DNA from: Escherichia phage C5
Sequence record: NC_048079.1
DNA: 39,551 nt
Strand: one strand, 5' to 3'
Of this stretch, positions 10,815 to 38,770 are shown in pieces; within the stretch, counting starts at the first letter, position 1; each line of letters begins with the position of its first letter. A program made the position numbers and the translations under genes. Under the pieces are notes generated by a model. It ran no database searches. It had not been told where the DNA came from and saw only the letters and a list, made by a program, of their open reading frames with translations.

Positions 10815-12533
<1,719 letters not shown>

Positions 12534-12550
12534 ATGATACGTGATGATAT

Positions 12551-12573
12551 TAATTAGACTCACTAAAGGAGGT
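12551..12573 (+). promoter_or_regulatory. Divergent T7-type promoter upstream of the HNH gene (phi4.3 position)
   Basis: taattagactcactaaaggaggt; core ACTCACTA conserved but upstream positions deviate from consensus. Confidence 0.55.
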
Positions 12574-12579
12574 AGCCAC

Positions 12580-12999
12580 ATGAGCACTGACTTAGAGAGA
12601 CTTGAAAGATTCTTGAAGATTGAGGGCGATTGCTGGCTGTTCACTGGCGGCAAGTCACATGCCTACGGAGTGTTCTGGATGGGTGGTAAGAATCACAAGG
12701 CACATAGGGCTGCCTTCGAACTTTATAATGGGAGGAAACCTAATGGTGTTATATTACACTCTTGTGATAATCCTTTGTGCTGCAATCCCGCTCATCTATC
12801 TGAGGGAACTCAGCTTGATAATATGGTGGACATGGTTAGAAAGGGACGCTCGTTAAAGGGTACGAAGAATCCCGCATGTAAGTTTACCGATGAGGATGTC
12901 AAGTTCATTCAGGAGTCTACCATGAAGGTCAAAGATTTAGCCACTCTATTCGGAGTGACGCGCCAAACAATAACCAGATGGAGGAAACACCATGTTTAA
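12580..12999 (+). CDS. HNH homing endonuclease (T7 gp2.8-like family)
   Basis: 139 aa from the ATG with RBS aaaggaggtag; HNH motif HSCDNPLCCNPAHL; C-terminal helix-turn-helix-like KVKDLATLFGVTRQTITRWRK; its stop overlaps the gene 4.3 ATG. The ORF track shows an upstream GTG extension to 12541 that would overlap the promoter. Confidence 0.85.
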   Translation: MSTDLERLERFLKIEGDCWLFTGGKSHAYGVFWMGGKNHKAHRAAFELYNGRKPNGVILHSCDNPLCCNPAHLSEGTQLDNMVDMVRKGRSLKGTKNPACKFTDEDVKFIQESTMKVKDLATLFGVTRQTITRWRKHHV

Positions 13000-13204
13000 A
13001 CTGATTAAGAAGTTGGGCAAACTGCTGGTTCGTTTGTATAACGTGGAAGCCAAGCGACTGAACGACGAGGCCCGTAATGAAGCCACACAGTCCCGCGCTC
13101 TGGCTATCCGCTCTAACGAACTGGCTGACAGCGCATCAAATAAAGTTACCGAGGCAGCTCGCGTAGCCAACCAAGCTCAACAACTTTCCAAATTCTTTGA
13201 GTAA
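12992..13204 (+). CDS. 4.3: Gene 4.3
   Basis: 70 aa MFKLIKKLGKLLVRLYNVEAKRLNDEARNEATQSRALAIRSNELADSASNKVTEAARVANQAQQLSKFFE. Confidence 0.85.
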   Translation: MFKLIKKLGKLLVRLYNVEAKRLNDEARNEATQSRALAIRSNELADSASNKVTEAARVANQAQQLSKFFE

Positions 13205-13223
13205 TCAAACAGGAGAAACCATC

Positions 13224-13493
13224 ATGTCTAACGTAGCTGAAACTATCCGTCTATCCGATACCGCTGACCAGTGGAACCGTCGAGTCCACATCAACGTTCG
13301 CAACGGTAAGGCGACTATGGTTTACCGCTGGAAGGACTCTAAGTCCTCTAAGAATCACACTCAGCGTATGACATTGACTGACGAGCAAGCACTGCGTCTG
13401 GTCAATGCGCTTACCAAAGCTGCCGTGACCGCAATTCATGAGGCTGGTCGCGTTGATGAAGCTATGGCTATCCTCGACAAGATTGACAGCTAA
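13224..13493 (+). CDS. 4.5: Gene 4.5
   Basis: 89 aa MSNVAETIRLSDTADQWNRRVHINVRNGKATMVYRWKDSKSSKNHTQRMTLTDEQALRLVNALTKAAVTAIHEAGRVDEAMAILDKIDS; RBS aggaga. Confidence 0.85.
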   Translation: MSNVAETIRLSDTADQWNRRVHINVRNGKATMVYRWKDSKSSKNHTQRMTLTDEQALRLVNALTKAAVTAIHEAGRVDEAMAILDKIDS

Positions 13494-13496
13494 GAG

Positions 13497-13536
13497 TGGT
13501 ATGCTCAAGGTCGCCCAAGCGGTGGCCTTCATGAAT
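13497..13536 (+). promoter_or_regulatory. RNase III processing hairpin (R4.7-like)
   Basis: gtggtatgctcaaggtcgcccaagcggtggccttcatgaa. Confidence 0.5.
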
Positions 13537-13537
13537 A

Positions 13538-13560
13538 CTATTCGACTCACTATAGGAGAT
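13538..13560 (+). promoter_or_regulatory. T7 RNAP promoter phi4.7
   Basis: ctattcgactcactataggagat. Confidence 0.8.
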
Positions 13561-13974
13561 ATGACCATGCGTGACCCTAAAGTTATCCAAGCAGAAATCG
13601 CTAAACTGGAAGCTGAACTTGAGGACGTTAAGTACCATGAAGCCAAGACTCGCTCCGCTGTTCACATTTTGAAGAACTTAGGGTGGACTTGGACACGACA
13701 GACTGGCTGGAAGAAGCCGGAAGTTTACAAGTTGAGCCACAAGGTGTTCGATAAGGACACTATGACCCACATCAAGGCTGGTGATTGGGTTAAGGTTGAC
13801 ATGGGAGTTGTTGGTGGGTACGGCTATGTCCGCTCAGTGAGTGGCAAATACGCACAAGTGTCATACATCACTGGCGTTACTCCGCGAGGAGCAATCGTTG
13901 CAGACAAGACCAACATGATTCACACAGGCTTCTTGACAGTTGTCTCGTATGAAGAGATTGTTAAGTCACGATAA
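13561..13974 (+). CDS. 4.7: Gene 4.7
   Basis: 137 aa MTMRDPKVIQAEIAKLEAELEDVKYHEAKTRSAVHILKNLGWTWTRQTGWKKPEVYKLSHKVFDKDTMTHIKAGDWVKVDM... Confidence 0.85.
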   Translation: MTMRDPKVIQAEIAKLEAELEDVKYHEAKTRSAVHILKNLGWTWTRQTGWKKPEVYKLSHKVFDKDTMTHIKAGDWVKVDMGVVGGYGYVRSVSGKYAQVSYITGVTPRGAIVADKTNMIHTGFLTVVSYEEIVKSR

Positions 13975-13992
13975 TCAATAGGAGAAATCAAT

Positions 13993-16107
13993 ATGATCGT
14001 TTCTGACATCGAAGCTAACGCCCTCTTAGAGAGCGTCACTAAGTTCCACTGCGGGGTTATCTACGACTACTCCACCGCTGAGTACGTAAGCTACCGTCCG
14101 AGTGACTTCGGTGCGTATCTGGATGCGCTGGAAGCCGAGGTTGCACGAGGCGGTCTTATTGTGTTCCACAACGGTCACAAGTATGACGTTCCCGCATTGA
14201 CCAAACTGGCAAAGCTACAATTGAACCGAGAGTTCCACCTTCCTCGTGAGAACTGTATCGACACCCTTGTGCTGTCACGCTTGATTCACTCTAACCTAAA
14301 GGACACCGATATGGGTCTTCTGCGTTCCGGTAAACTGCCTGGGAAACGCTTTGGGTCTCACGCTCTGGAGGCGTGGGGTTATCGCTTAGGAGAGATGAAG
14401 GGTGAATACAAGGATGACTTTAAGCGTATGCTTGAAGAGCAAGGTGAAGAATACGTTGACGGAATGGAGTGGTGGAACTTCAACGAAGAGATGATGGACT
14501 ATAACGTTCAGGACGTTGTTGTCACTAAGGCTCTCCTTGAGAAGCTACTCTCTGACAAACATTACTTCCCTCCTGAGATTGACTTTACGGACGTAGGTTA
14601 CACTACGTTCTGGTCAGAATCCCTTGAGGCCGTTGATGTTGAACATCGCGCTGCATGGCTACTCGCTAAGCAAGAGCGCAATGGATTCCCGTTTGACACT
14701 AAAGCAATCGAAGAGTTGTACGTAGAGTTAGCTGCTCGACGCTCTGAGTTGCTCCGTAAATTGACCGAAACGTTCGGCTCGTGGTATCAGCCTAAAGGTG
14801 GCACAGAAATGTTCTGCCATCCGAGGACTGGTAAGCCATTGCCTAAATACCCTCGCATTAAGACACCTAAAGTTGGTGGTATCTTTAAGAAGCCTAAGAA
14901 CAAGGCACAGCGAGAAGGCCGTGAGCCTTGCGAACTGGATACCCGCGAGTACGTTGCTGGTGCTCCGTATACTCCAGTTGAGCACGTAGTGTTTAACCCT
15001 TCGTCTCGTGACCACATCCAGAAGAAACTCCAAGAGGCTGGATGGGTCCCAACCAAGTACACCGATAAGGGCGCTCCTGTGGTGGACGATGAGGTACTCG
15101 AAGGAGTGCGTGTGGATGACCCTGAGAAGCAAGCTGCTATCGACCTCATTAAAGAATACTTGATGATTCAGAAGAGAATCGGACAGTCCGCTGAGGGAGA
15201 CAAGGCTTGGCTTCGCTATGTTGCCGAGGACGGTAAGATTCATGGTTCTGTTAACCCTAATGGAGCAGTTACGGGTCGTGCTACCCATGCGTTCCCCAAC
15301 CTTGCGCAAATTCCGGGTGTACGTTCTCCTTATGGAGAGCAGTGTCGCGCTGCTTTTGGCGCTGAGCACCATTTGGATGGGATAACTGGTAAGCCTTGGG
15401 TGCAGGCAGGTATCGACGCATCCGGTCTGGAGCTACGCTGCTTGGCTCACTTCATGGCTCGCTTTGATAACGGCGAGTACGCTCACGAGATTCTTAATGG
15501 TGACATTCACACTAAGAACCAGATGGCTGCTGAATTGCCTACCCGTGATAACGCTAAGACGTTCATCTATGGGTTCCTTTATGGGGCTGGCGATGAGAAG
15601 ATTGGGCAGATTGTCGGTGCTGGTAAAGAGCGCGGTAAGGAACTCAAGAAGAAATTCCTTGAGAACACCCCTGCGATTGCAGCACTACGTGAGTCTATCC
15701 AACAGACCCTTGTTGAGTCCTCTCAGTGGGTGGCTGGTGAACAGCAAGTCAAGTGGAAACGCCGCTGGATTAAAGGTCTGGATGGTCGTAAGGTACACGT
15801 CCGTAGTCCTCACGCTGCCTTGAATACCCTACTACAATCTGCTGGTGCTCTCATCTGCAAACTGTGGATTATCAAGACCGAAGAGATGCTCGTAGAGAAA
15901 GGCTTGAAGCACGGCTGGGATGGGGACTTTGCGTACATGGCATGGGTACATGATGAAATCCAAGTAGGTTGCCGTACCGAAGAGATTGCTCAGGTTGTCA
16001 TTGAGACAGCACAAGAAGCAATGCGCTGGGTTGGAGACCACTGGAACTTCCGGTGTCTTCTGGATACCGAAGGTAAGATGGGTCCTAATTGGGCCGTATG
16101 TCACTAA
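13993..16107 (+). CDS. 5: Gene 5 DNA polymerase (family A, with 3'-5' exonuclease domain)
   Basis: 704 aa [76 protein letters not shown]...; near-identical to T7 gp5. Confidence 0.98.
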
Positions 16108-19133: not shown

Positions 19134-19526
19134 ATGGAGAATTGCATCGAGTGGACTAAAGGTACTAACCAGAAGGGTTACGGTAGGAAGTGGGTTGACG
19201 GTAAGTTGGTTTCGGCTCATCGCCACGCCTATGAAGAAGTACACGGTCCTATTCCAGATGGTCTTGTAGTGATGCACCTCTGTGACAATCCTAGATGTTA
19301 TAACGTGGAGCACTTGACTCTTGGGACTCATGCAGACAACTCAGATGACAAGGTGCGTAAAGGTAGACAAGCAAAAGGTGAAACTCTAAGTAAGAAACTT
19401 ACTGAGACAGATGTTTTGACCATTCGCACCTTAAACCTACCACATGCTGAGATAGCCAAGATATACGGTGTTAGTCAATCCACCATAACTCGCATAATTA
19501 GACGCGACACATGGAGGCATATCTAA
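19134..19526 (+). CDS. 7.7: Gene 7.7 HNH homing endonuclease-like protein
   Basis: 130 aa MENCIEWTKGTNQKGYGRKWVDGKLVSAHRHAYEEVHGPIPDGLVVMHLCDNPRCYNVEHLTLGTHADNSDDKVRKGRQAKGE...; HNH motif HLCDNPRCYNVEHL; same family as the 12580-12999 protein. Confidence 0.9.
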   Translation: MENCIEWTKGTNQKGYGRKWVDGKLVSAHRHAYEEVHGPIPDGLVVMHLCDNPRCYNVEHLTLGTHADNSDDKVRKGRQAKGETLSKKLTETDVLTIRTLNLPHAEIAKIYGVSQSTITRIIRRDTWRHI

Positions 19527-33912: not shown

Positions 33913-35577
33913 ATGGCTAACGTAATTAAAACCGTTTTGACTTACCCGTTAGATGGCTCCAATCGTGATTTTAATATCCCGTTTGAGTATCTAGCCCGTA
34001 AGTTCGTAGTGGTAACTCTTATTGGTGTAGACCGTAAGGTCCTCACGATTAATACAGACTATCGCTTTGCTACACGTACTACCATCTCTCTGACCAAGGC
34101 TTGGGGTCCAGCCGATGGCTACACGACCATCGAGTTGCGTCGAGTAACCTCCACGACCGACCGATTGGTTGACTTTACGGACGGCTCAATCCTCCGTGCG
34201 TATGACCTTAACGTCGCTCGGCTTCAAACGATGCACGTAGCGGAAGAGGCTCGTGACCTAACTGCGGATACTATTGGTGTCAACAACGATGGTCACTTGG
34301 ATGCCCGTGGTCGTCGAATCGTTAACCTAGCAAACGCTGTGGATGACCGTGATGCTGTTCCACTTGGTCAACTTAAGACCATGAACCAGAACTCATGGCA
34401 AGCACGTAATGAAGCCTTACAGTTCCGTAATGAGGCTGAGACTTTCAGAAACCAAGCGGAAGGCTTTAAGAACGAGTCTGGTACCAACGCTGCTAATACG
34501 AAGCAGTGGCGCGATGAGACTAATGGGTTCCGTAATGAGGCTGAACAGTTCAAGAATACTGCTGGTCAATATGCGACATCTGCTGGGAACTCTGCTACTG
34601 CTGCACACCAATCTGAGGTAAACGCTGGAAACTCAGCTACGGCCTCAGCGGATTCTGCGGCTTCTTCAAAACAGCAAGCAGACCGAGCGAAGCAGGAAGC
34701 AGACAAGCTGGGAAACTGGAACGCCCTTGCTGGTACTGTAGATAGCGTTCAGGGTGATAGTGTATTCTGGAAAGGAGGAGGCTATTGGGTTGGAGGTCCC
34801 ATATACCAACTACAAACGAACCACGCGTTTAGGTTCCGTATGGGTCTTTGGGAAGAAGGCGACTTCCTTAAGTCTGACTTCGCTATGGACCGACCGGACG
34901 GTATAGGGTTCATAGAGTATGCAGCGGACAAGACTGGGCAACATCGTCACCAGATTCGACTTAATCAGTTAACAATAGCTGGCGGTGTGTTAGAGTCAGA
35001 TGCTGATGATCTCATAGCTCACGCTTTCGCTGACCAGTATAACACTAAAGCTCCTTTCTTCCAACAGATTCATGTACAGTCTACAAGCTCATATCACCCA
35101 ATAATAAAGCAACGAACTCACCAATCTGGACGGTGGGCAGGATGCTGGTCTATCGGTACATTACTGACTGGTACGTCTCCGTCATTCCACGTACATATGA
35201 AAGACGAATGGGCAGGTGATAAACTTTGGACGTTCAATACCAATGGAGACTTCCGCGTCCCTGGGGAGATTTGGGCCGATGGTGGACGTGTGGTTGTACG
35301 GAATGGCTCTTTTGACCCTGAGGGTAGAATTTGGGGTACTGCGTATAATACCGGATACCTTGATGATTGGATTAGGGCTAACTGGCCCGGCGATGTTTAT
35401 TGGGGGCCTCAACGCTGGGTACAAAAGTGGGGAGGTTATGCAGACATAGTTGCTGGTGCTGGGGAAGCCTGCTCTGGTGTAACCGCTGATGGTAGCGGTA
35501 ACGTTGCGGGTGCATTCTTCCGAGCGCTTTGGCTTGGATATCACAACGGTAATAAACGATTGGTTGCTTCCCAATAA
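33913..35577 (+). CDS. 17: Gene 17 tail fibre protein with a non-T7 distal (receptor-binding) half
   Basis: 554 aa; residues 1 to about 280 (MANVIKTVLTYPLDGSNRDFNIPFEYLARKFVVVTLIGVDRKV... through the coiled-coil NEAETFRNQAEGFKNE...) match T7 gp17; from about GNWNALAGTVDSVQGDSVFWKGGGYWVGGPIY... to the C-terminus the sequence is unrelated to T7 and is Gly/Trp-rich with HRH and HVH motifs. Confidence 0.95.
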   Translation: MANVIKTVLTYPLDGSNRDFNIPFEYLARKFVVVTLIGVDRKVLTINTDYRFATRTTISLTKAWGPADGYTTIELRRVTSTTDRLVDFTDGSILRAYDLNVARLQTMHVAEEARDLTADTIGVNNDGHLDARGRRIVNLANAVDDRDAVPLGQLKTMNQNSWQARNEALQFRNEAETFRNQAEGFKNESGTNAANTKQWRDETNGFRNEAEQFKNTAGQYATSAGNSATAAHQSEVNAGNSATASADSAASSKQQADRAKQEADKLGNWNALAGTVDSVQGDSVFWKGGGYWVGGPIYQLQTNHAFRFRMGLWEEGDFLKSDFAMDRPDGIGFIEYAADKTGQHRHQIRLNQLTIAGGVLESDADDLIAHAFADQYNTKAPFFQQIHVQSTSSYHPIIKQRTHQSGRWAGCWSIGTLLTGTSPSFHVHMKDEWAGDKLWTFNTNGDFRVPGEIWADGGRVVVRNGSFDPEGRIWGTAYNTGYLDDWIRANWPGDVYWGPQRWVQKWGGYADIVAGAGEACSGVTADGSGNVAGAFFRALWLGYHNGNKRLVASQ

Positions 35578-35586
35578 GGAGACATT

Positions 35587-35970
35587 ATGCGTAAATTTAC
35601 TAACTGGACATACGAAGTAACTACCGCTTACGGCGGTATCGCCACTTATGACGTGACGGACTCTTGTGGGACCGATTGGTATGAACTCATGGTTGAACTT
35701 GAGGACCGACCTGAGAGATGGGTCGTCGGTATCGATAAGAACGGATTCATCTCATGGTTCTCCGATGGTACTGTTAACGGCACTTATGCGCCACCTGAGG
35801 GCGGTCTGGTGATTGTCACCGATGAGTTCGACCCTGAGTGGCAACGTGTTAAACTTTGGAACGGGGAGTCCTTCGAGGATATCCCTGAGCCACCTAAACG
35901 TACACCTGAGGAAATCCAAGCAGACCTTGAGGCTCTGATGGTTGAACTTCGTGCGCTTAGGGAGGGATAA
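35587..35970 (+). CDS. Hypothetical 127-aa protein immediately after the tail fibre gene; candidate tail fibre assembly chaperone
   Basis: RBS aaggaga overlapping the gp17 stop, ATG 6 nt later; MRKFTNWTYEVTTAYGGIATYDVTDSCGTDWYELMVELEDRPERWVVGIDKNGFISWFSDGTVNGTYAPPEGGLVIVTDEFDPEWQRVKLWNGESFEDIPEPPKRTPEEIQADLEALMVELRALREG; no T7 gene at this position; the W-NG-W/F stretch and acidic C-terminus loosely resemble Tfa-type chaperones. Confidence 0.8.
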   Translation: MRKFTNWTYEVTTAYGGIATYDVTDSCGTDWYELMVELEDRPERWVVGIDKNGFISWFSDGTVNGTYAPPEGGLVIVTDEFDPEWQRVKLWNGESFEDIPEPPKRTPEEIQADLEALMVELRALREG

Positions 35971-37009: not shown

Positions 37010-38770
37010 GTGTCTACTCAATCCAATCGTAATGCGCTCGTAGTGGCGCAACTGAAAGGAGACTTCGTGGCGTTCCTGTTCGTCTTATGGAAGGCGTTAA
37101 ACCTTCCGGTGCCCACTAAGTGTCAAATCGACATGGCTAAGGTGCTGGCAAACGGGGACAACAAGAAGTTCATCTTACAGGCTTTCCGTGGTATCGGTAA
37201 GTCATTCATCACCTGTGCGTTCGTTGTGTGGTCCTTATGGCGGGACCCTCAGTTGAAGATACTTATCGTATCAGCTTCTAAAGAACGTGCAGACGCTAAC
37301 TCCATATTCATCAAGAACATCATTGACCTGCTACCGTTCCTAGCTGAGTTAAAGCCGAGACCCGGACAGCGTGACTCTGTGATTAGTTTTGATGTTGGTC
37401 CTGCTAGTCCTGACCACTCGCCTAGTGTGAAATCCGTAGGTATCACTGGTCAGTTAACTGGTAGCCGTGCTGACATTATCATTGCGGATGACGTTGAGAT
37501 TCCGTCTAACAGTGCGACTATGGGTGCCCGTGAGAAGCTATGGACTCTCGTTCAGGAGTTCGCTGCATTACTTAAACCGCTGCCTTCCTCTCGTGTTATC
37601 TACCTTGGTACACCTCAGACTGAGATGACTCTATATAAGGAACTTGAGGATAACCGTGGGTACACAACCATTATCTGGCCTGCTCTGTACCCAAGGACGC
37701 GTGAAGAGAACCTCTATTACTCACAGCGTCTTGCTCCTATGTTACGTGCTGAGTACGATGAGAACCCTGAGGCCCTCGCTGGGACTCCTACAGACCCTGT
37801 GCGCTTTGACCGTGATGACCTCCGCGAGCGTGAGTTGGAATATGGTAAGGCTGGCTTCACACTACAGTTCATGCTTAACCCGAACCTGAGTGATGCCGAG
37901 AAGTACCCTCTGAGGCTCCGTGACGCTATCGTAGCGGCATTAGACTTAGAGAAGGCACCGATGCATTACCAGTGGCTTCCGAACCGCCAGAACATCATTG
38001 AGGACCTTCCTAACGTTGGCCTTAAGGGTGATGACCTTCATACGTACCATGAGTGCTCGAATAACTCTGGTCAGTATCAACAGAAGATTCTGGTCATTGA
38101 CCCAAGTGGTCGTGGTAAGGATGAAACAGGTTACGCTGTACTGTACACCCTCAACGGTTACATCTACCTAATGGAAGCTGGTGGTTTCCGTGATGGCTAC
38201 TCCGATAAGACCCTTGAGTTGCTCGCTAAGAAAGCTAAGCAATGGGGAGTCCAGACGGTCGTCTACGAGAGTAACTTCGGTGACGGTATGTTCGGTAAGG
38301 TATTCAGTCCAATCCTTCTTAAACACCACAACTGCGCTATGGAAGAGATTCGTGCTCGAGGTATGAAGGAGATGCGTATTTGCGATACCCTTGAGCCAGT
38401 CATGCAGACTCACCGCCTTGTCATTCGAGATGAGGTCATTCGGGCAGACTATCAGTCCGCTCGTGACATAGACGGTAAGCATGACGTTAAGTATTCACTG
38501 TTCTACCAGATGACTCGTATCACTCGTGAGAAAGGCGCTCTGGCACACGATGACCGATTGGATGCCCTTGCGTTAGGCATTGAGTATCTCCGTGAGTCCA
38601 TGCAGTTGGATTCCATTAAGGTCGAAGGTGAAGTGCTTGCGGACTTCCTTGAGGAACACATGATGCGTCCTACAGTGGCTGCTACCCACATCATTGAGAT
38701 GTCTGTAGGAGGAGTTGATGTATACTCTGAGGACGCTGATGGATACGGTACGTCTTTCATTGAGTGGTGA
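37010..38770 (+). CDS. 19: Gene 19 terminase large subunit (DNA maturase)
   Basis: 586 aa from a GTG start with RBS aaggaggc; [66 protein letters not shown]...; near-identical to T7 gp19. Confidence 0.97.

Follow-up and report, generated by a model that had tools for sequence, protein, structure and literature searches.

The window analysed here, the 39,551-nucleotide stretch of Escherichia phage C5 (NC_048079.1), contains an HNH gene between the primase/helicase gene 4 and gene 4.3. This gene is probably a free-standing homing endonuclease gene of the HNH_3 / His-Me-finger type, from a lineage specific to the 3' side of gene 4 in T7-like phages. Genome comparisons showed that the cassette is absent from most relatives, has moved between backgrounds and is under purifying selection; cleavage, a target site and super-Mendelian inheritance we infer. 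It is an ordinary selfish-type phage gene of a well-known kind, with an unusually clean insertion anatomy. Existing annotations already call it a (putative) HNH endonuclease in phages N30, AH67C600_Q5 (Q5 below) and Bas102 and, in Kvp1, a gene 2.8-like homing endonuclease.

The HNH gene and its insertion point

A first-pass annotation of the window, made without database searches, had described a 139-residue protein with the HNH signature right after gene 4, a C-terminal helix-turn-helix (HTH)-like tail and a stop codon overlapping the ATG of gene 4.3, and all three features were recovered. The signature HSCDNPLCCNPAHL corresponds to residues 60-73, and residues 40-83 matched Pfam HNH_3 (PF13392) with 46.3 bits against a gathering cut-off of 24.8 bits (E=3.2e-12). 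The best-matching PHROGs were endonuclease and HNH families, with E-values of 1e-24 to 2e-29. The Pfam HTH matches at residues ~108-137 were weak and sub-threshold (HTH_23, E=1.7e-4), and an AlphaFold model built on a 56-sequence alignment (predicted local distance difference test score 92.3) had three C-terminal helices next to an N-terminal beta-sheet region and a beta-beta-alpha core. The overlap with gene 4.3 is 8 nt long and lies within CATGTTTAA at 12991-12999, with the 4.3 ATG at 12992 and ATGTTTAA as the stop/start element. The HNH stop codon is drawn from gene 4.3 sequence. The window uses the TAA that follows ATGTT-T; in Q5 and JB01, where the second codon of gene 4.3 is TTC, a TAA further on serves as the stop.

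Residues Y29, G30, H60, C62, D63, C67, H72, N81 and R90 were invariant in the alignment of 56 homologs, and C18, H42, R43, N64, P65 and N69 were among those conserved in at least 90% of the sequences. These positions fit H60 as the HNH general base, N69 as the structural Asn and N81 as a metal ligand, and C18, C62, C67 and H72 are likely to be Cys3His zinc ligands. The protein has the beta-beta-alpha-metal fold of the His-Me finger nucleases and belongs to the HNH_3 / His-Me-finger family. A Foldseek search with the model gave no significant match, and profile-to-PDB sequence matches were weak (I-PpoI, E 0.09; I-HmuI, E 0.45).

Ten orthologs from phages or contigs were all intact, and the pairwise ratio of nonsynonymous to synonymous substitution rates (dN/dS) was 0.07-0.26, even with synonymous sites saturated. 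Because at least ten intact orthologs with such ratios exist, the open reading frame (ORF) is, on this comparison, under purifying selection and thus not a chance ORF. Synonymous divergence from Bas102 and LNA7 was uneven along the gene, with a pS of 0.09-0.17 over codons 45-100 (window 12715-12880) and of 0.38-0.60 in the 5' and 3' thirds. The low value in the catalytic core suggests intragenic recombination between two HNH subtypes, or a constraint at the nucleotide level.

The ORF has its own translation signals, the ATG at 12580 and the strong Shine-Dalgarno (SD) sequence AAGGAGGT, and lies outside any intron or intein. The genes of Q5, JB01 and Bas102 are annotated from the equivalent ATG. 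A longer start was considered, corresponding to the RefSeq start in N30 (ATG at NC_048078 12212, window 12544, 151 aa) and to a GTG at 12541 in the ORF list. It was rejected because the 12544 start is 5' of the promoter +1 and has no SD, and because the JB01 sequence is unrelated there.

Alignment of the region with T7 and its relatives had been proposed in the first-pass annotation. We aligned the interval from the end of gene 4 to the start of gene 4.3 for five phages with the HNH gene and four without it, and later for 15 distinct empty alleles, and found an insertion the size of the ORF, placed precisely between phi4.3 and the 4.3 ATG. The window has 46 nt between the gene 4 stop (12533) and the next ATG, which is that of the HNH gene; in short empty alleles such as those of phiA1122, WX2 and EG1 the corresponding distance, to the ATG of gene 4.3, is 45-48 nt. 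The HNH ATG therefore stands in the exact place of the 4.3 ATG. T7 has a spacer variant of 86 nt.

The cleanest pair of an occupied and an empty allele was formed by JB01 and the IMG/VR contig L075, which both have an extra 47-nt spacer and the same type of tail on the gene 4 product (gp4). With slashes at the junctions, L075 reads ...CACTAAAGGAGA / CACACC / ATGTTC and JB01 reads ...CACTAAAGGAGA / TAGCCAC ATG...HNH...TGGAGGAAACATC / ATGTTC. This pair places the junctions between promoter +6 and the 4.3 ATG. As the aligned alleles showed, the cassette has captured the promoter and SD already present at the site, and a GGAGG in its last codons gives gene 4.3 a replacement SD.

The spacer between the gene 4 stop and phi4.3 had at least three length alleles, of ~46 nt, of 86 nt (T7 and WW2; 1532-1617 of L002 for T7) and of 92 nt of unrelated sequence (JB01 and L075; 1535-1627 of L005 for JB01). 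The spacer of contig L071 has an internal duplication, with GGAGAGTCCCATTT occurring twice. T7 gp4.2 was also tried as a relative or remnant of the HNH protein and was rejected, as BLASTP gave no similarity and the extra 40 nt of the T7 spacer were by eye unlike the HNH 3' end.

Features at the gene 4 / gene 4.3 junction of the window, in window coordinates
Feature	Position	Strand	Remarks
Gene 4 3' end, variant gp4 C-terminal tail	12464..12533	+	Part of the hyper-divergent tract linked to the HNH gene
phi4.3-type class II T7 promoter (-17..+6), TAATTAGACTCACTAAAGGAGGT	12551..12573	+	+1 = G12568; -13T/-12A; syntenic with T7 phi4.3
SD of the HNH ORF, AAGGAGGT	12566..12573	+	6 nt before the ATG; serves gene 4.3 in empty alleles
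HNH endonuclease ORF, 139 aa	12580..12999	+	ATG 12580, TAA 12997-12999; intact orthologs, conserved catalytic residues
Insertion relative to empty alleles, 412 bp	12580..12991	+	HNH ATG to the base before the 4.3 ATG
HNH_3 / beta-beta-alpha-Me catalytic core, residues 40-83	12697..12828	+	
C-terminal three-helix HTH DNA-binding module, residues 104-136	12889..12987	+	
GGAGG SD for gene 4.3	12980..12984	+	Inside HNH codons W-R-K, 7 nt before the 4.3 ATG
Gene 4.3	12992..13204	+	70 aa; DUF5471, Pfam E=9e-47

Occupancy, transfer and the linked upstream region

Among 276 matching phage records, only N30 (two records), Q5, JB01, Bas102 and LNA7 carried the insert, and T7, phiA1122 and many relatives gave a two-piece alignment that skipped it. 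The gene is present in only ~2-3% of close relatives. With tblastn, a protein at least 60% identical was found in only 9 of 50,697 phage records, and a scan of IMG/VR with the HNH protein gave N30 and Kvp1 as the only close relatives. The first-pass annotation had taken differing occupancy of sites as the pattern of free-standing homing endonucleases, and had named universal presence of the gene at this locus, without empty-site alleles, as a finding that would speak against this. Empty-site alleles were the large majority, with 15 distinct ones seen, and presence is clearly not universal.

All placeable homologs with at least 70% identity were located directly 3' of the primase/helicase gene, in Kvp1 and pO103 (Berlinvirus) and in the metagenomic contigs L077, L078, L079-82 and L083. 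Two arrangements were found. In class A (window, Q5, JB01, Bas102, LNA7, L083, L077) the order is gene 4, promoter, HNH gene. In class B (Kvp1, pO103, L078, L079) the HNH gene precedes the promoter and either adjoins or overlaps the stop of gene 4. The SD for gene 4.3 within the HNH gene is kept as TGGAGGA in the occupied class A alleles and in L078; the other class B members (Kvp1, pO103, L079) have different 3' ends. In Kvp1 (L012 1974-2434) and pO103 (L013) a change from AGC to AAT within the gp4 tail creates the HNH ATG, and the stop TAA lies inside the promoter. In their closest empty Berlinvirus relatives (ETEP21B, BA14 and dozens more) the place of the HNH gene is taken by a spacer of 65-80 nt.

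Across genera the identity of the HNH protein follows that of gp4. Relative to the window, gp4 and HNH identities were 98.6% and 93% for L083, 85% and 77% for L077, 77% and 73% for L078 and L079, and 70% and 70% for Kvp1. Judged from these alignments, this is evidently a long-standing HNH lineage specific to the gene 4 locus and not a recently relocated gp2.8. The first-pass annotation had placed a gp2.8-type protein at a new locus; the locus is new relative to T7, but the lineage always sits after gene 4 in several genera. The likeness to the gp2.8 type itself was real, the nearest T7 relatives being gp2.8 (44% identity, E 2e-29) and gp7.7 (45%, E 6e-29) over ~120-130 residues. Both share with the window protein the Pfam HNH_3 match, a VLHSCDNPLCCNP..HL..GT core and a C-terminal HTH, and all three are small free-standing ORFs tightly wedged between essential genes. 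However, gene 2.8 lies after gene 2.5 and gene 7.7 after gene 7.3, and neither position is orthologous to that after gene 4.

The HNH genes of Q5 and JB01 were 99.0% identical. Their flanks were less similar, with 81.7% identity in the last 120 nt of gene 4, 88.4% in the preceding 380 nt and 92.5% in 400 nt downstream. Taken with L075 as the matched empty allele, this difference indicates that the cassette was recently transferred into another background, and the left crossover would lie roughly within the promoter.

The tract upstream of the cassette, which encodes the acidic gp4 C-terminal tail and the spacer, was found to be divergent as well. In a nine-genome alignment of 3.5 kb, all nine fixed differences between phages with and without the HNH gene fell within 12471-12573. 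Over the 110 bp of 12464-12573 the window differed from each of six empty alleles by ~27 mismatches and two small indels, against a background of ~6 per 100 bp, and the first 20-25 bp after the 4.3 ATG were nearly identical. The gp4 tail of HNH carriers contains YTGE(E/G)G..(N/H). The T7-type tail, Y(S/T)GEEESHSESTDWS(N/K)DTDF (ESHSEST), was nearly invariant in 14 distinct empty alleles and never co-occurred with the HNH gene. A linked tract of this kind is as expected from co-conversion or target-site immunity, and is suggestive of them.

The promoter in front of the HNH ORF aligned with phi4.3 of T7 and of the short-spacer empty alleles. Its core GACTCACTAAAG is intact, and positions -11 to +1 match the specificity determinants of T7 RNA polymerase. 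The full sequence TAATTAGACTCACTAAAGGAGGT deviates from the T7 consensus at -13 (A>T), -12 (C>A), -2, +3 and +5/+6, and the A at -2 and the A at +3 are common to T7's own phi4.3. A degenerate T7-type promoter with mismatches near -13 to -11 had been noted in the first-pass annotation; -13 and -12 do differ, but -11 has the consensus base. Six other promoters in the window are perfect 23-mer matches to the T7 consensus, and the core GACTCACTANAG occurs at 16 sites against ~1 expected by chance. Given the T7 promoter specificity of the phage, as seen in the six perfect sites, the -13/-12 changes are real deviations. TA at these two positions was found in N30 and the window, Bas102, LNA7 and L083, and AC in Q5 and JB01, which both carry the HNH gene, and in all empty alleles. 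In Berlinvirus the promoter of HNH carriers reads CAATAAGACTCAC, compared to CAATAGAACTCAC in the empty relatives ETEP21B (L085) and BA14 (L086), with changes at -12/-11. These parallel the -13/-12 changes of the window, but as one independent observation they are only a lead.

It had also been proposed that the promoter mismatches could lower the expression of both the HNH gene and gene 4.3. Some reduction is plausible, but it would probably be mild, the positions being tolerant in published data. In the part of the supplement of Komura et al. 2018 (PMC5937735) used here, in vitro RNA/DNA read ratios are 141-188 for the wild type, 192 for -13T, 116 and 90 for -12A, and 161 and 138 for -2A, and -9 to -7 are given in that paper as the critical promoter bases. 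The -13T/-12A double variant does not occur in this part of the supplement. As the single substitutions are tolerated (-13T about wild type; -12A about 55-70%), the loss of expression from the double variant is plausibly modest, perhaps up to two-fold, with the promoter not crippled. Class II promoter sites are also present upstream, e.g. at 11925-11936, and read-through from them would transcribe the HNH gene too.

Probable homing and the alternatives to it

If the cassette is a homing endonuclease gene, the phage RNA polymerase would transcribe it along with the other class II (DNA-metabolism) genes. The monomeric protein may bind a long asymmetric site through its N-terminal beta-sheet region and C-terminal HTH, as I-HmuI does, and in a mixed infection it would nick or cut HNH-less genomes near the junction of gene 4, phi4.3 and gene 4.3. 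The break would be repaired from the HNH-positive genome by the T7 recombination machinery, and along with the cassette, repair would copy a short upstream tract made up of the gp4 tail variant, spacer and promoter changes. Carriers would themselves be protected by the insertion, which would split the site, or by the divergence of the linked upstream tract. The sporadic occurrence in Berlinvirus, with Kvp1 and pO103 occupied and dozens of relatives empty, repeats the pattern and supports homing.

The free-standing homing endonucleases of T4 (mobE and the seg genes) are likewise ORFs between conserved genes, with insertion polymorphism and with linked flanking polymorphisms of the sort that co-conversion or target-site immunity should leave, a concept covered in PMC2790892 and PMC10448857. 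They belong to a different protein subfamily and phage group. I-HmuI of SPO1 (PDB 1U3E, 174 aa) is an intron-encoded HNH nicking enzyme with 15% identity and a weak profile match, whereas the window protein is free-standing and has 139 aa. The Cys/His cluster of the window protein (C18, C62, C67, H72) is closer to the zinc loop of I-PpoI than to I-HmuI. A close counterpart is 'gene 2.8' of Kluyvera phage Kvp1 with its homolog in Escherichia phage pO103, a 70% identical protein encoded directly downstream of gene 4 and sporadic among relatives. However, the Kvp1/pO103 cassette replaces the 65-80-nt spacer and directly adjoins the gene 4 stop, on the upstream side of the phi4.3/4.7 promoter, whereas that of the window lies downstream of the promoter.

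Several observations weigh against homing. We found no paper with cleavage, enzymatic or genetic data for this HNH lineage or for T7 gp2.8/gp7.7. Instead of homing, some advantage for the phage could underlie the sustained purifying selection. The congruence of HNH and gp4 identities is explained equally well by homing among close relatives and by a long vertical descent at this locus with repeated losses. Variant gp4 tails also occurred in two empty alleles, L075 and Salmonella phage CHRF_10027, so a variant tail is insufficient for HNH carriage. No near-isogenic pair of an empty and an occupied allele was found, and the background is 5-10% mosaic, which is why the linked tract is only suggestive of co-conversion. 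The gp4.3 protein of EG1 (L062), for example, is identical to that of the window, and the DNA is 5-10% different throughout.

The gene could instead be kept mainly as an anti-defence or DNA-end-masking factor, whose DNA binding blunts break-sensing defences such as GAPS4 independently of nuclease activity, with homing secondary or extinct. We consider this unlikely as the main explanation. A 2025 preprint (10.1101/2025.09.07.674715) reports that T7 homing endonucleases attenuate the break-sensing GAPS4 independently of catalysis. In that work catalytically dead T7 gp3.8, expressed ectopically, and an I-HmuI-like HNH protein of a BASEL phage both attenuated GAPS4, and T7 without genes 2.8, 3.8 and 7.7 grew worse on GAPS4-positive cells. 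Strong purifying selection and deep-time co-divergence with gp4 would also fit a useful gene. However, an occupancy as low as that among the close relatives is odd for a generally useful gene, and the strict conservation of catalytic residues would be needless for a nuclease-independent role. In addition, the proteins tested were other HNH_3 members, and gp3.8 has no BLASTP similarity to the window protein. As a complement to homing, an anti-defence role is a serious possibility and could explain the purifying selection.

An elaboration of homing was also considered, namely that the lineage is anchored to the phi4.3 promoter and the gene 4 tail because its recognition site lies there, and that the nuclease drives the diversification of the helicase tail and tunes the promoter through target-site immunity. 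The acidic C-terminal tail of the replicative helicase docks onto T7 DNA polymerase. This reading draws on independent insertions to either side of one promoter, which in Berlinvirus precede it and in Teseptimavirus follow it, and on the promoter substitutions at -13 to -11 and the rewritten gp4 C-terminal tail of carriers in both genera. We regard it as quite unlikely. If it were true, a selfish nuclease would diversify the helicase C-terminal tail and tune a phage promoter as a by-product.

That the gene is an ancient, vertically inherited accessory gene at the gene 4 / 4.3 junction, shaped by repeated deletion and ordinary homologous recombination with no homing, appears very unlikely. The congruence of HNH and gp4 across genera, although rough, would be expected from it. 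Short direct repeats, AGGAGnnAnCAC(C)ATG, at both ends of the cassette could mediate deletion, and T7-like phages are highly mosaic anyway. Deletion through these repeats is hard to reconcile with the empty alleles, including L075, which have a uniform GGAGACAC(A)CCATG junction and no hybrid of the cassette ends. The JB01 cassette is far closer to that of Q5 than the flanks are, which needs a recent transfer. Low dN/dS and a full set of catalytic residues speak for an active nuclease.

A role in packaging, with the HNH protein as a helper of the terminase, was speculated on for the orthologous gene in the AH67C600_Q5 paper (PMC10194157, citing Kala et al. 2014), where the gene is noted as an acquisition. 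The probability of such a role is almost negligible. The gene belongs to the class II replication module, at a distance of 24 kb from genes 18/19, and does not adjoin terminase or portal genes as that of the HK97 gp74 type does. T7-type packaging works in many relatives without it, and the characterized proteins nearest to it in structure are homing endonucleases.

Free-standing HNH genes are common in T7-like phages, and those of the gp2.8/gp7.7 type are without a known target. The locus after gene 4 is a good test case for homing, with precise junctions, a matched empty allele (L075 for JB01) and a linked divergent tract in an essential gene; the two alternative insertion points flanking one promoter add to its value. 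A defined target site would explain some of the mosaic boundaries in genomes of the T7 group, and could serve phage engineering for marker-free insertion next to gene 4.

Genomic surroundings

The phage of the window belongs to the T7 group (Teseptimavirus). Escherichia phage N30 (NC_048078 / MH717098) was 100% identical over 11500-14000, the 2.5 kb around the HNH gene. The left arm of the window was 98.4% identical to N30 and the right arm only ~92%, and the closest records for the right arm include Serratia phage UFV01 and PGX1; no entry of the phage collection matched the window over its full length. Because the two arms differ in this way, the window phage is by these comparisons a mosaic relative of N30 and distinct from it. 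The second HNH gene of N30, located after gene 19, is absent from the window, where gene 19 lies at 37010-38770.

The gene order after the HNH ORF is T7-like, with gene 4.3 followed by gene 4.5 (TA_inhibitor). In T7 the gene 4 stop is at 13265, the phi4.3 +1 at 13341 and the 4.3 ATG at 13352, 11 nt after the +1. T7 gp2.8, gp3.8 and gp7.7 all matched Pfam HNH_3, and T7 gp5.3 is of the PD-(D/E)XK type. This agrees with what the first-pass annotation had stated about T7, that phi4.3 directly precedes gene 4.3 and that the HNH-type genes are 2.8, 3.8 and 7.7. It had also found the 2.8 and 3.8 positions of the window empty, which they are, as is the 5.3 position. However, the 7.7 position between genes 7.3 and 8 is occupied by a homolog (19134-19523) with HNH_3 and HTH_23 matches and 71% identity to T7 gp7.7. 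The window phage thus has two genes of the gp2.8/7.7 type, one after gene 4 and one at the 7.7 position.

HNH_3 genes have a hot zone between genes 3.5 and 5. The T7-like family of Logan contigs L079-L081 has one at the 3.8 position, a second after gene 4 and a third that replaces 4.7 before gene 5, and BA14 has a '2.8' endonuclease between 4.7 and 5 (L086 2204-2316). The DNA polymerase gene of Bas102 (L004 2993-3500) is annotated as joined from two pieces, which suggests a gene 5 intron as described for some T7-like phages.

A scan of the whole window with Rfam gave no match. In gene 17 (tail fibre; window 33913-35970) the match to T7 was limited to residues 1-288, and the C-terminal receptor-binding half is different. 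An extra ORF of 127 aa after gene 17, at 35587-35970, had a weak PHROG match to a tail fibre assembly protein (E 0.004) and 46% identity to the extra ORF of N30. Gene 17 and this ORF are probably a swapped fibre tip with its own chaperone.

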